A DNA stretch of 64,000 bases from the NCBI RefSeq assembly GCF_056746865.1, contig NZ_CM163382.1, one strand, 5' to 3'. The number at the start of each line of letters is the position of its first letter. The first letter of the stretch is position 1. Both the position numbers and the translations under genes were made by a program. Below, piece after piece: positions 51,556 to 63,984 of this stretch. The notes below the pieces were generated by a model that was not told the origin of the DNA, made no database searches, and saw only the letters and a list, made by a program, of their open reading frames with translations.

Positions 51556-52056
51556 TCAACTTTCTCTTATGCAAGATTGGAGTTTAAAATAATGTTTATC
51601 CCATTCACAGAGTGCTATAAACAACTCAACAGTACCTTTTATGTTAAGTTTATTTAGGGCTCTTATTTTGTGATATGATACTGTTTTATAATCAATTCCT
51701 TTGATAATGGCTATTTGTTTTAACGAATAAGAAACACATAACCGCAGGATATCTATCTCATCATGGGTAAGTGGTTCTTGAGTGGAATACACATTTTGTG
51801 TATGAAGATTCGAAACCAGAAAATGCGTTAAATCAGATAATGTAATATTCTTATTGATCCTGATGAAATTGTTGCTCAAAAGGGTGTTTACAGGTTCTGT
51901 ATTTGGTTTGAGATTTCGATGTTGGTGCTCATCAATTACAACGAACGAATGTCCAAGATCAACCAACGCAACCAAATCGCTGTAATATTCCTTTTGGGAT
52001 GCTAATAATGCATTAGTGCCTACAGTGAAGTAGACATCACTGGAAAAGACTTGCAT
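51556..52056 (-). CDS. etrA: LuxR/NarL-family HTH regulator within T3SS island
   Basis: 166 aa; C-terminal LuxR-type HTH; located between epa and epr clusters. Symbol from memory of ETT2 literature. Confidence 0.6.
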   Translation of the reverse strand: MQVFSSDVYFTVGTNALLASQKEYYSDLVALVDLGHSFVVIDEHQHRNLKPNTEPVNTLLSNNFIRINKNITLSDLTHFLVSNLHTQNVYSTQEPLTHDEIDILRLCVSYSLKQIAIIKGIDYKTVSYHKIRALNKLNIKGTVELFIALCEWDKHYFKLQSCIRES

Positions 52057-52305
52057 ATGCCAACCTGCACTCTAAAATCATTTAGGGTAAATATTACGTG
52101 TAAAATTTAAAATAATGGTAATTGTTATATTTGCATATCAATGAGGGAATAGGGTGTATACCTTAAATTGCAAATAAAGTTATGTATGTAGGAATTTAAA
52201 ATGGTTCTCGAAAATTATAATCTTTTTATTGTGTGTCATCATAATTTGGTCATGAAATTTCCGTCTTGTTACACTACTCTAAACTAGAGCTTATGGAATT
52301 AGCGG

Positions 52306-53496
52306 GTGGTATTCATGGAAAATAATGATAAATTCTTATCACAAGACTTATTGGAATCTTATGCCATTCGTTTATTGAGCGGACCATTGAATGGATGCGA
52401 GTATGAAATACTTAATGGGCGTGTACTCGTTATCGTTGGTAATGATGTTTCGTTAGGAAGAAGTGATTCTTTTTCTGAGTTACCAGAGAATACGATAGTC
52501 ATTCCTTATGGAGAGCTTACAGGCAGTTTTGAGGTAATAATCACTACAGACCCTGATCTGGTTGTAACAATCAGAGAATTAACAGCACAAGAATCTGAAG
52601 ATAGAACGTTAACATTGAATCAGCAAATAGAAGTTTTAGGCCTCAAATTTGCTGTAAAAGTAAAAAATGAAGTTTGGCAGTATTCAATACCAGGTATTGT
52701 TGAAAATAACATTACTTCAACAAGACAACATTTCTTTAGAAGTACGCTGTTTAAATATGTAACGCTATTTTTTCTTTTTGCTATCATTTTTATAGCTTTT
52801 TATATTGTTAATGCCAGTAATGATCCGCAGCTGAGACATATCGATAAAATTCTTGTAAACAAAAATAGAAATTATGAAATTTTATATGGTAGGGATCATG
52901 TCATCTATATCAATACCAATAGTTTGGATGAAGCTGTCTGGGTCAAACAAGCACTGGAAAAAAATCAACCAGGAAAGCCAGTACGGGTGATAAATCCTGA
53001 TGATGAATCGATACGAATTTTTTCATGGCTTGCTGATAATTTCCCAGATCTACAATATTTTAAACTACAGCTATTAGATGCCAGTAATCCAAGACTGACA
53101 GTGAGTAAGCAACGGAATGCTATCACACAGCAACTAATCGATAATCTTATTAAAGGATTACTGCAAACTATGCCATATGCCAGCAATATAAGTATTGCGG
53201 TATTAGATGATAATGTATTGGAAAGTCAGGCAATTGAAACATTGTCGGCAATAGGTCTTTCTTATGAAAAATATAAAACAGCTAACAATGTATATTTCAA
53301 TATCATTGGTACGTTAAGCGACAGTGAATTAAATAAAATTAATAACTATGTCGACGAATATTATAAACAATGGGGTAAACAATATGTAAGATTTAATGTG
53401 AATTTGAAAAATCAGGATAAAAATAATAGTTCATTTAGCTACGGAGATAACCGATTCGAGAAGTCTCAAGGTAGCAAGTGGACATTTCAGGAATAA
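52306..53496 (+). CDS. eprH: T3SS inner-membrane ring protein (PrgH/SctD-like)
   Basis: 396 aa, single TM segment, position before needle gene. Confidence 0.7.
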   Translation: MVFMENNDKFLSQDLLESYAIRLLSGPLNGCEYEILNGRVLVIVGNDVSLGRSDSFSELPENTIVIPYGELTGSFEVIITTDPDLVVTIRELTAQESEDRTLTLNQQIEVLGLKFAVKVKNEVWQYSIPGIVENNITSTRQHFFRSTLFKYVTLFFLFAIIFIAFYIVNASNDPQLRHIDKILVNKNRNYEILYGRDHVIYINTNSLDEAVWVKQALEKNQPGKPVRVINPDDESIRIFSWLADNFPDLQYFKLQLLDASNPRLTVSKQRNAITQQLIDNLIKGLLQTMPYASNISIAVLDDNVLESQAIETLSAIGLSYEKYKTANNVYFNIIGTLSDSELNKINNYVDEYYKQWGKQYVRFNVNLKNQDKNNSSFSYGDNRFEKSQGSKWTFQE

Positions 53497-53509
53497 TTGA
53501 GGAGGACTT

Positions 53510-53749
53510 ATGGCAGATTGGAATGGTTATATTATGGATATCAGCAAACAATTTGATCAGGGCGTTGATGATCTGAACCAACAAGTTGAAAAGGCGTTGG
53601 AGGATTTAGCAACCAATCCTTCCGACCCGAAATTCCTTGCCGAATATCAGAGTGCATTAGCTGAGTATACATTATATCGAAATGCGCAATCTAACGTTGT
53701 AAAAGCGTATAAAGATCTTGATTCGGCAATCATACAAAACTTCCGCTAA
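53510..53749 (+). CDS. eprI: T3SS needle filament protein (PrgI/MxiH/SctF)
   Basis: 79 aa MADWNGYIMDISKQFDQGVDDLNQQVEKALEDL..., needle-subunit hallmark. Confidence 0.9.
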   Translation: MADWNGYIMDISKQFDQGVDDLNQQVEKALEDLATNPSDPKFLAEYQSALAEYTLYRNAQSNVVKAYKDLDSAIIQNFR

Positions 53750-53768
53750 ACTGGATAAGGATTTTATT

Positions 53769-61699: not shown

Positions 61700-61847
61700 T
61701 ACATGATATTTTACATTGCAAGGTGATATCTAAAATGAAAGATGTTGATCAAAACTTTGATGCTTTATACTGGCATATACTACAAGCATATTTAATTTTA
61801 TTGTTTTATGATTAACGAGGTTCCATCTTTTTGTTATCTATTTAAGT

Positions 61848-62342
61848 TTACCTTGCACAATGCATTATTGCTCTGTTACCAATACTCAAAATAAAAGCAT
61901 GCTTACCTTGCTTTAGTATATTATAGCTTACACTTTTTTCTGGAAAGACATAAAAATCAGGAATAAGTTCTGCAAGTCTATCATCATCGACTTGATCCAT
62001 GATCTCAAATTTATTAACTTTCTTTGATGTTAAATGGGCTGTGTCATAGTTTTCAATCCATGTGTATTCAATATTTCGCCGTATTGACTTACTTTCTCTG
62101 TTACCCTGTTGCCAGGTTCCGCTCAACGCAACAGTTCCTGTTTTATTTTTTTTGTTATACATAAAGTCGATGGTAAGATTTGCTCGCCCCTTGTCATTAA
62201 AAATTACCCAATTTGCAGTGCATGTTTCATTATATATCATTTTTTCTGCAGTATAAGAGTAAACAATGAAGAGAATAAACCCACTGATAAAAACTAAAAT
62301 AAATAATAAGTTTTTTTTATAATCAATCACGATTAACCTCAC
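61848..62342 (-). CDS. Hypothetical membrane-anchored protein (164 aa)
   Basis: N-terminal TM segment; overlaps next gene start. Confidence 0.45.
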   Translation of the reverse strand: MRLIVIDYKKNLLFILVFISGFILFIVYSYTAEKMIYNETCTANWVIFNDKGRANLTIDFMYNKKNKTGTVALSGTWQQGNRESKSIRRNIEYTWIENYDTAHLTSKKVNKFEIMDQVDDDRLAELIPDFYVFPEKSVSYNILKQGKHAFILSIGNRAIMHCAR

Positions 62343-63132
62343 GGTAAGACAGGGTTAAACAGCCTGCCACTTCATGTTGGTTATAGTTTTTATTGCATGC
62401 CATAACAATCATCCCTGGTGAGGATTTTGCAAGAGGGAAGTATAACCACGGATATTTTTTACAGTTAATCCCCGAATCCAGTATCCGTGTCTTATATTTA
62501 TCGAACTCTTTCAACCCATCAATTGTATCTTCTGTCACATTAAAATGGCAGCCATTAATTTCCGCAACAGTCTTGTAATCCTTGAAGAATGGCTTCGGTT
62601 GATTATTATTCCATAGCCAATGTGCAGAATATACGCCTATAGCAAATATGCTCAACATAATTAGATAACTTTTTATATGTTTGAGGATTTTGTTATTGAA
62701 ATTGTTTGCGCCACTAATGCTCTCTTTGTACCCCGCATTACCTTTTACGGCAGGTGGGGCATTGTGTGTATGTGCGTCTGTTGAAGAGTTTATTGCATGA
62801 TTTTGTATGTTAATGTCATTATGAATCTTGAATCCTCTTCTCGGCACGGTTGCAATAAGCGAGTGGGTGGTATCACCAACAGCGCGAAATCCGCGTCTGA
62901 TAATGGATATGTTCTGATATAACGTGTTAGTTGGCACACGCATACCTTCTTCTTCCCAGACTCTGGTGAAAAAATCTTGTTGTGCAACCACATCAGGAAA
63001 AGCTTCAAGTAGAAGTGATAAACAACGACTGGCTGGCGTTGTCAGAACGACGTTAAGATCGGCGTTATGTACCGATATTAATTTTCGGTGCTCAGGCCAG
63101 AACTCGATATTATCGTTAATAATCCAGTACAT
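62323..63132 (-). CDS. yqeI: ToxR-like membrane-bound winged-helix regulator
   Basis: 269 aa; N-terminal OmpR/ToxR-type winged helix, central TM segment, periplasmic C-terminus. Confidence 0.68.
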   Translation of the reverse strand: MYWIINDNIEFWPEHRKLISVHNADLNVVLTTPASRCLSLLLEAFPDVVAQQDFFTRVWEEEGMRVPTNTLYQNISIIRRGFRAVGDTTHSLIATVPRRGFKIHNDINIQNHAINSSTDAHTHNAPPAVKGNAGYKESISGANNFNNKILKHIKSYLIMLSIFAIGVYSAHWLWNNNQPKPFFKDYKTVAEINGCHFNVTEDTIDGLKEFDKYKTRILDSGINCKKYPWLYFPLAKSSPGMIVMACNKNYNQHEVAGCLTLSYREVNRD

Positions 63133-63465
63133 ACGTCAATAGACACTAAATCAATCGAAATGGAAATCACATAGTTTGCTAAGTATATTGGTATTTACGG
63201 CATAAATATATATTAATTTTATATTTATCATAATGATTGAAATGAGGCTTTAATGTCGCAACCTAAAACTTTACGTAAATTAACATGATTAACATTTATG
63301 CCACTATTGTTTGTAAATTCATATTTCGTAATGCTTCTGAATTTTTCGTGTGATGGTTTTAAATACCATGTTGTTTACTCTTGGGGTTACTGCTTATTTG
63401 TAAAATACGGGCATTTCAATAGATGCCCGTATAAGCAGAGTATGATTCTGGCAGATTATTGAGTA

Positions 63466-63984
63466 TCAATGTTGGACCGAATGTGAACGAATAAATAACT
63501 CGTTTATTTTACCACCCATTCTCTTTTCGATTCGTTGCTTGTACGCGTAGATGCTACGGATATCCATATCCAGAACTTCAGCAATCTGATATGGATTATA
63601 ACCAGAAACCATATACCCCATTATGGTGAATTCCATCTGAGTTAATGTGTTCCCTCTGGTAAATGATAAATAACGACCAATAAATAGTTGTCTGATCTTT
63701 TCGTTGGCAACATCAAGACCATCATCATTATATATGACAGCAGATATTGCAGAGTTGTGTTTTCGCCAGTAGTTAGCTAACGATTGCATATTTCGGTCGC
63801 TGACTAAAACAATCCCCATGTCAGTACTTGCAAGATAGTCAATCCAGTCTTTTTCAAGGAATAGACGTAAAAAACTTACTGAAAAATCGACAAAAATATA
63901 TCCGCTTAATCTCGCATTGTGGTTTTTTGTTAAAATACCTTCCACCACACCACGATTAAAATATGAACTTTCTTCGGGCCACAT
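63466..63984 (-). CDS. yqeH: LuxR-type HTH regulator
   Basis: 172 aa; C-terminal HTH; ATG at 63982-63984. Confidence 0.6.
   Translation of the reverse strand: MWPEESSYFNRGVVEGILTKNHNARLSGYIFVDFSVSFLRLFLEKDWIDYLASTDMGIVLVSDRNMQSLANYWRKHNSAISAVIYNDDGLDVANEKIRQLFIGRYLSFTRGNTLTQMEFTIMGYMVSGYNPYQIAEVLDMDIRSIYAYKQRIEKRMGGKINELFIRSHSVQH

Follow-up and report, generated by a model that had tools for sequence, protein, structure and literature searches.

Around the type III secretion system (T3SS) genes in a 64,000-nucleotide stretch of contig NZ_CM163382.1 (RefSeq assembly GCF_056746865.1), the whole of which we call the window, lie six putative transcription factors, and the question that this locus raises is whether they form the control apparatus of a secretion island or have only come to lie together. 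The analysis favors the former. We put at roughly 90% the probability that the region makes up the regulatory complement of a complete island of ETT2, the second type III secretion system of E. coli, of the type found in the enteroaggregative E. coli (EAEC) strain 042, i.e. a T3SS island resembling pathogenicity island 1 of Salmonella (SPI-1) and lying beside the tRNA-Gly gene glyU. All six regulators have been studied already, so the finding as such is a known one; the window adds one further intact copy of the 042-type ETT2, and strains with this sequence can be expected to hold the full ETT2 regulatory set, including the functional allele type of ygeH.

The ETT2 island and its six regulators

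The island occupies positions 36718-64000 and has the "intact" form of EAEC 042, in agreement with the earlier note, which had taken the T3SS genes to be those of ETT2. It carries SPI-1-like eiv, epa, epr and org genes in conserved order, has a low GC content and lies at the glyU locus, the 3' end of which survives as a remnant at 36700-36717. Many E. coli chromosomes in RefSeq match positions 51000-64000 with 100% identity, and their annotation names ygeH, yqeI and yqeH as well as the PrgH/EprH and EscJ families. In the EC31 record the island begins with genes for GH15, a GhoT/OrtT-like toxin, an AraC-type regulator, sctC through sctU and an InvH-like lipoprotein, continues with a helix-turn-helix (HTH) regulator, prgH through orgB, a LuxR-type regulator, a lytic transglycosylase, ygeI, ygeH and ygeG, and ends with ygeF, yqeK, yqeL, yqeJ, yqeI and yqeH, beyond which come the core genes yqeG, yqeF and kduID. 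Judging by the annotation of identical and near-identical records, the island is colinear with its counterparts in EAEC 042 (EC042_3050 region) and O157:H7 Sakai (ECs3703-ECs3737, OI-115), which have the same order from the GH15 and GhoT-like genes to yqeH and the same place beside glyU. Among the differences, eivJ, eprH and epaR are undisrupted here, unlike in Sakai, and the left border is formed by an integrative element fused to cas5e and not by tRNA-Gly/actS.

The base composition sets the island apart as well, with a GC content of 31-46% from ~35 kb up to the window's end as against ~52% further left, and with 64% AT over the island as a whole compared to 47% in the core part of the window. 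Upstream of every one of the six regulators the AT content rises to 69-74%, which is consistent with control by H-NS; the 249-bp intergenic region between the divergent etrA and eprH genes, for example, has 70.7% AT. An Rfam scan of the whole window placed no RNA family inside ETT2, its sole match being an int-alpA RNA in the mobile element to the left, and neither Pfam nor NCBIfam had a match for YqeJ, YqeK, YgeF, YgeI or the OrgB-like protein.

All six reading frames proposed in the earlier note are present exactly where, and on the strand on which, it had placed them (Table 1); each contains a DNA-binding domain above the Pfam gathering score, and the families that it had named are the right ones. 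EivF has the C-terminal double HTH of the AraC type (HTH_18 44.9 bits and HTH_AraC 40.3 bits, both over their cut-offs), and by its score against the NCBIfam InvF model (NF011868; 184.8 bits, E 1.7e-54; equivalog cut-off 259) it is classed as a homologue of InvF, not an equivalog. The first ~90 residues of EtrA matched no known domain. YgeH scored 1059 bits over residues 1-458 against the NCBIfam model "HilA family regulator YgeH" (NF008870; cut-off 800), 261 bits against the HilA/EilA model and 48.7 bits against Trans_reg_C, with a weak match to TPR_2 in addition.

Pseudogenes, a possibility that the earlier note had left to alignment, were not encountered: all six genes are full length and free of internal stops, and none of them is flagged as a pseudogene in the RefSeq records identical over 51000-64000. 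EivF, EtrA, YgeK, YqeI and YqeH show 100% identity to their 042 counterparts (for YqeH this refers to the full protein, the part in the window being identical to EC31) and 96.3-99.6% identity to those of Sakai (EivF 99.6%, EtrA 97.6%). YgeH shares 457 of 458 residues with the 042 allele and 95% with the Sakai and K-12 alleles, a near-identity that matters because the 042 allele is functional, whereas the O157 allele was reported to be non-functional (PMC4210603). The six genes are also under purifying selection. By the Nei-Gojobori method against O157 Sakai, dN/dS was 0.03 for eivF, 0.08 for etrA, 0.03 for ygeK, 0.14 for ygeH, 0.22 for yqeI and 0.03 for yqeH, compared to 0.00-0.16 for T3SS structural genes and 0.00-0.18 for flanking core genes, with yqeG, galR and lysR among the core genes of similarly low values.

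Table 1. Features of the ETT2 island and of the adjoining integrative element (positions in the window)
Feature	Position	Strand	Description
eivF	39150-39899	+	AraC/XylS family, InvF homologue; heads the eivF-eivG... operon; 4-nt overlap with sctC
eiv/epa operon	39896-51190	+	Export apparatus (sctC, gatekeeper, sctV, sctN, eivI, eivJ, epaO, sctR/S/T/U); regulator target; EC31 RefSeq annotation
etrA	51556-52056	-	166 aa; C-terminal LuxR/GerE HTH (Pfam GerE 30.3 bits); divergent from eprH
eprHIJK-orgAB operon	52306-56078	+	Needle complex; RefSeq annotation
ygeK/etrB	56301-56933	+	NarL-type; Response_reg 31.0 bits (cut-off 30.2), GerE 74.4 bits
ygeH	57925-59301	-	HilA family; N-terminal OmpR/ToxR winged helix, C-terminal tetratricopeptide repeat (TPR) region
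ygeH promoter region	59302-59635		70.7% AT; counterpart of the H-NS-bound region in 042; binding predicted
ygeG	59636-60127	-	SicA/LcrH-class TPR chaperone; Pfam TPR_3
yqeJ	61848-62330	-	Small protein, N-terminal membrane anchor; 8-nt overlap with yqeI
yqeI	62323-63132	-	ToxR/MarT-like; Trans_reg_C 37.5 bits
yqeH	63466-64000	-	LuxR-type, EcpR-like; open reading frame in window 63466-63984; 5' end cut by window edge
Integrative element	16792-36717		~20 kb; abuts left edge of ETT2; 99.7% identical to the glyU-inserted element in fS10a and others
Tyrosine integrase	16931-18184		In integrative element
int-alpA RNA	18229-18296		In integrative element; Rfam
AlpA regulator	19338-19535		In integrative element
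Y1 tnpA	25412-25948	-	IS200/IS605 insertion in integrative element
tnpB	25851-27059	+	IS200/IS605 insertion in integrative element

Regulator density and the alternatives

The 27.4-kb, 33-gene island holds six regulators where 1.8 would be expected from the K-12 average, for which we used the figure of 304 transcription factors in 4.64 Mb given in PMC6055005. On this baseline the enrichment is ~3.3-fold (Poisson P = 0.010; binomial by gene count P = 0.026), and for the 12.5-kb range to which the earlier note had been attached, with five regulators, P is 0.0016. SPI-1 carries a comparable set of in-island regulators, namely HilA, HilC, HilD, InvF and SprB (PMC7232297), so the roughly threefold enrichment of ETT2 is real and at the same time typical of this kind of island; the crowding to which the earlier note had pointed thus holds up, but "unusually dense" overstates what is normal for SPI-1-type islands. 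The left flank of ETT2 in EC31 was dropped as the window's own control since positions 1-36699 are not colinear with EC31, and its count (1 transcription factor in 28 coding sequences) serves as an E. coli core-genome comparison only. The statistics by themselves would sit well with a chance clustering of unrelated HTH proteins that share no common logic: the nominal P is only 0.01, on the same baseline chance alone would bring ~1.7 windows of 27 kb in each genome to six regulators, Fisher's test against the neighboring core flanks of EC31 (3 transcription factors in 44 genes) gives P = 0.12, and four different families are represented among the six. Such an origin is nonetheless highly improbable, considering that YgeH, EivF and the partner protein YgeG match the HilA-InvF-SicA set of SPI-1 in type, that Sakai, 042 and EC31 all have the whole set traveling with the island and arranged in a conserved order, and that published cross-links connect its members, EtrB repressing etrA and eivF and YgeH activating the ETT2 operons.

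A somewhat more serious, though still unlikely, alternative is that a decaying island has left the regulators behind as passive relics, readable open reading frames with no selected role that cluster by common descent with the T3SS genes. We surveyed 5,426 complete E. coli genomes, counting a gene as present if at least 80% of it was found in one place, and obtained 982 genomes with eivF against 978 with sctV, 3038 with etrA against 3030 with eprHIJK, 3485 with ygeK, 3470 with ygeH and 3660 with yqeI-yqeH. ETT2 is thus widely eroded, and the loss runs from the glyU side, with the eiv half, and the full set of six regulators, kept in only ~18% of genomes. Preferential retention of the regulators over the structural genes was tested for and rejected, the counts being equal to those of their neighbors. 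Retention tracks position in the island and nothing else, as the relic explanation would have it, and the same explanation would account for the non-functional O157 YgeH, for the stop at codon 52 that makes ygeK a pseudogene in K-12, where eivF and etrA are deleted, and for the dN/dS of 0.56-0.63 of the neighboring small open reading frames ygeI and ygeF. It is harder to reconcile with the intactness of all six genes here at dN/dS values as low as those of core genes, with the deletion phenotypes that have been published for every one of them, and with the finding that even K-12, which has lost the T3SS genes, still has yqeH, yqeI and ygeH in intact form.

Several of these and other points weigh against reading the six as the working regulatory complement of ETT2. 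Since regulators are kept just as often as their structural neighbors, presence and absence give no sign of selective retention, and the K-12 ygeK pseudogene, together with the O157 YgeH allele, with which neither activation nor complementation of hilA was seen (PMC4210603), means that regulator decay does occur in other lineages. The sole difference between the YgeH of the window and that of 042 is at codon 271 (58489-58491), which encodes Ser here and Pro in 042, Sakai and K-12. The functional data all come from enterohaemorrhagic E. coli (EHEC), EAEC 042 or avian pathogenic E. coli (APEC), not from the source strain, the window alone is silent as to the enterocyte effacement locus (LEE), the eip/EilA locus and ETT2 effectors, and the hydrophobic core of YqeI is borderline, its best 19-residue window reaching 1.59 where 1.6 is usual.

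Published functions and a possible regulatory network

The H-NS/YgeH cascade, the effects of EtrA, EivF and EtrB on the LEE and the deletion phenotypes are taken from the literature, mostly on other strains. The YgeH of 042 can replace HilA in Salmonella and is required for expression of the ETT2 operons, while ygeH itself is repressed by H-NS, which was found on the 042 ygeH promoter by electrophoretic mobility shift assay (PMC4210603). EtrA and EivF are repressors of LEE secretion and of adhesion in EHEC (PMC10877973; PMC11068852), and EtrB, the product of a monocistronic, autoregulated gene activated by QseA, binds the ler region, activates ler (also PMC11068852) and represses etrA and eivF (PMC10877973). 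Deletion of yqeI, yqeH or ygeK in APEC results in reduced flagella, motility, biofilm or serum phenotypes (PMC11068852; PMC7552227; PMC9014576; PMC8614350); mutants in these three genes lose motility, and YqeH and YgeG raise the transcription of espE3 (PMC11068852). The statement of the earlier note that ETT2 regulators act on genes beyond the island is therefore borne out by the published effects on the LEE, flagella, biofilm and espE3. As the literature already has it, a secretion island that was acquired horizontally, and that is in many cases crippled, is nevertheless able to rewire the virulence, motility and biofilm programs of its host through its regulators.

Putting these reports together with the gene content of the window, a network can be envisioned in which the AT-rich ETT2 is silenced by H-NS until YgeH counters the silencing and turns on the ETT2 operons, including eivF, whose product, probably together with the SicA-like chaperone YgeG, would then activate effector genes. 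EtrB/YgeK would autoregulate, repress etrA and eivF and, in LEE-positive strains, bind the ler region, its activity probably being set by its own expression level (e.g. via QseA) and not by phosphorylation, while EtrA, with its LuxR-type HTH, would act as a repressor. YqeI may, probably in concert with the co-translated membrane protein YqeJ, serve as a membrane-anchored sensor-regulator of the ToxR/MarT type and YqeH as an EcpR-like regulator of the LuxR type. Jointly, the six factors would control the island and distant genes such as those for the LEE, flagella, fimbriae, biofilm and EspE3. The present analysis itself shows the identity, intactness and domain architecture of the genes, the purifying selection on them and the atypical receiver of EtrB; that EivF pairs with YgeG and YqeI with YqeJ, and that EtrB acts independently of phosphorylation, we infer.

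ETT2 shares with SPI-1 an AT-rich composition, silencing by H-NS and the presence of several regulators inside the T3SS island itself, and an InvF-like protein (EivF), a SicA-like protein (YgeG) and a LuxR-type factor are found in each beside a member of the HilA family, YgeH, which is able to stand in for HilA (PMC4210603). ETT2 differs in that it is without the HilC/HilD feed-forward pair of AraC-type regulators (PMC7232297) and instead has two or three LuxR-type factors (EtrA, EtrB and YqeH) and the ToxR-like YqeI; moreover, EivF and YgeG remain under the equivalog cut-offs of the NCBIfam InvF and SicA models. For YgeG the scores were 124.8 bits against SicA and 79.5 bits against LcrH_SycD. 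SicA is the co-activator of InvF in SPI-1, and it is by analogy with this InvF-SicA paradigm that YgeG is likely to be the co-activator partner of EivF.

The receiver domain of EtrB

The earlier note had called the product of ygeK/etrB a response regulator. The fold and the GerE HTH are indeed those of such a protein, but the phospho-acceptor Asp is absent, and the receiver is an atypical one. In phmmer alignments to DesR (4LDZ/4LE0), 3CZ5 and 4E7O, the position of the phospho-Asp is taken by Gly57, followed by Glu58 (FILG-EFAGG), and the acidic pair is reduced to S9-D10, while Lys107 is conserved. The best match in the PDB was DesR 4LDZ (E 6e-18), and VraR and RcsB also aligned over the full length. 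Thus, EtrB shares the two-domain layout, the invariant Lys107 and the typical GerE HTH with NarL/FixJ regulators such as SsrB, DesR, RcsB and NarL, but differs from them in the loss of the phospho-Asp, in its acidic pair and in having no histidine kinase gene next to it; none is annotated within the island in EC31, 042 or Sakai. The missing phospho-Asp and the missing kinase gene together suggest that EtrB is probably a pseudo-receiver regulator whose activity does not depend on phosphorylation.

A search of 5.8 billion proteins revealed that EtrB belongs to a discrete family of 210-aa homologues with 48-63% identity, encoded in E. fergusonii, E. marmotae, cryptic Escherichia clades and Yersinia enterocolitica, beyond which identity drops to 36% or less with generic NarL/FixJ regulators. 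At site 57, all 16 family members compared have Gly, Ser or Thr followed by Glu or Asp, whereas all six generic regulators have the canonical Asp. It therefore seems rather likely, although by no means certain, that EtrB and its Escherichia and Yersinia homologues constitute a conserved, kinase-free family of NarL-type pseudo-receiver proteins in which Gly/Ser/Thr-Glu has replaced the phospho-Asp. If so, the EtrB node of the ETT2/LEE network would be controlled by transcription only, or else by a ligand or a partner protein. No statement that EtrB is a pseudo-receiver was found in the literature covered, which included reviews that describe it only as SsrB-homologous and of the NarL family and did not extend to the primary reports of Luzader 2016 and Ren 2004.

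YqeI, YqeJ and YqeH

YqeI has an N-terminal winged helix (Trans_reg_C, residues 28-102), a hydrophobic core at ~156-174 with a Lys/His-rich N-terminal flank, which probably forms a single transmembrane segment, and a C-terminal domain that contains Cys. Winged helix, central hydrophobic segment and Cys-bearing C-terminal domain are likewise found in ToxR of Vibrio and in MarT of Salmonella SPI-3, and YqeI has been described as akin to MarT (PMC7552227). The resemblance extends to the gene arrangement, in that a small gene for a membrane-anchored protein overlaps the 3' end of yqeI as in ToxR/ToxS; the Kyte-Doolittle maximum of YqeJ is 2.54, at residues 8-26. A role for YqeJ as a ToxS-like partner of YqeI is thus possible. 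Unlike for ToxR and MarT, the family assignment of YqeI stops at Trans_reg_C, the match to CadC reaching merely 20 bits.

The gene for YqeH runs past the window; in the identical EC31 record it has 633 nt and reaches the equivalent of position 64098, so that 172 of its 210 codons lie in the window. Its GerE match barely exceeds the gathering score of 23.5 (23.7 bits for the full protein, 24.1 bits for the fragment in the window), and against the NCBIfam EcpR model it scored 73.8 bits, where an equivalog would need 300. The homology to EcpR begins at residue 31, and residues 1-40 are rich in Cys (8 residues), with a repeated PEES motif and internal Met residues at positions 17, 22 and 39. These features make it uncertain where the real start codon lies, or whether YqeH has an N-terminal metal-binding extension.

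Other ETT2 genes and annotation flags

The Prokaryotic Genome Annotation Pipeline (PGAP) flags epaO (YscQ) as "frameshifted" and eivJ (SpaN) as split or partial in EC31, in fS10a and even in the reference "intact" 042. In the window (46531-48374), eivJ is one continuous reading frame of 298 aa with a SPAN domain, the stop codon of which overlaps the start of epaO (TAATG), and epaO is a reading frame of 315 aa with a FliN-type C-terminal domain; compared to Sakai, the stretch contains a single in-del, an additional A at 47461. With both frames continuous, the PGAP flags are not evidence of decay, nor do they prove that the system is dead.

The GH15 gene at the left end of the island has a 1-bp deletion relative to EC31 in a T-run at 38160, which splits it into two reading frames (36908-38221 and 38218-38559) and could be a genuine frameshift or else an error in sequencing the homopolymer. 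The small reading frames ygeI (57539-57757) and ygeF (60353-60844) stood out with dN/dS of 0.63 and 0.56, respectively, while no other island gene exceeded 0.22, which suggests that they are under relaxed or diversifying selection or are not real genes.

The integrative element and the cas5e junction

The element that abuts ETT2 (Table 1) ends in a right att remnant consisting of the 18-nt 3' end of tRNA-Gly, TTCCCTTCGCCCGCTCCA, at 36700-36717; tRNA genes proper were not detected in the window. Besides the genes listed, it encodes AntA/BRO proteins, an Icd-like protein, a DUF927 primase-like protein and a single-stranded DNA-binding protein. Its IS200/IS605 insertion truncates a gene for a PerC-family regulator, of which the C-terminal 49 codons remain (27109-27258). 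PerC/Pch proteins are activators of the LEE, and with this truncation a seventh potential T3SS-related regulator is dead here. Four co-directional reading frames of 843, 686, 925 and 104 aa, the starts of which overlap or abut, make up the cargo at 27693-35354; they had no match in Pfam or PADLOC and could be an uncharacterized accessory or defense module of a satellite-like element.

Positions 1-16798 are core DNA, comprising genes for a MarR-type regulator, rpoS and nlpD through cysDNC, iap, the CRISPR array, cas2e, cas1e, cas6e and cas5e, and are 100% identical to strain 118UI, in which the region is oppositely oriented and lies at a distance of ~110 kb from ETT2. Here cas5e, a gene of the type I-E Cascade, is truncated at 16798 and fused to the integrative element, the junction (16792-16798) being a 7-bp core, CTTCGCC, common to cas5e and the tRNA-Gly 3' end. 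Among the 5,426 complete genomes, only ETEC1747 has a related element at the same point, lying entirely within cas5e as a simple insertion. The junction and the arrangement in 118UI imply an inversion of ~120 kb, and the simplest history would be one in which inverted copies of the element at glyU and cas5e recombined with each other; the reciprocal junction would lie outside the window. The type I-E CRISPR-Cas locus (13111-16798) has, apart from the truncated cas5e, an internal stop in cas1e (annotated in 118UI), and the rearrangement parts the CRISPR array and the adaptation genes from cas7e, casB, casA and cas3, so that the locus looks inactive.

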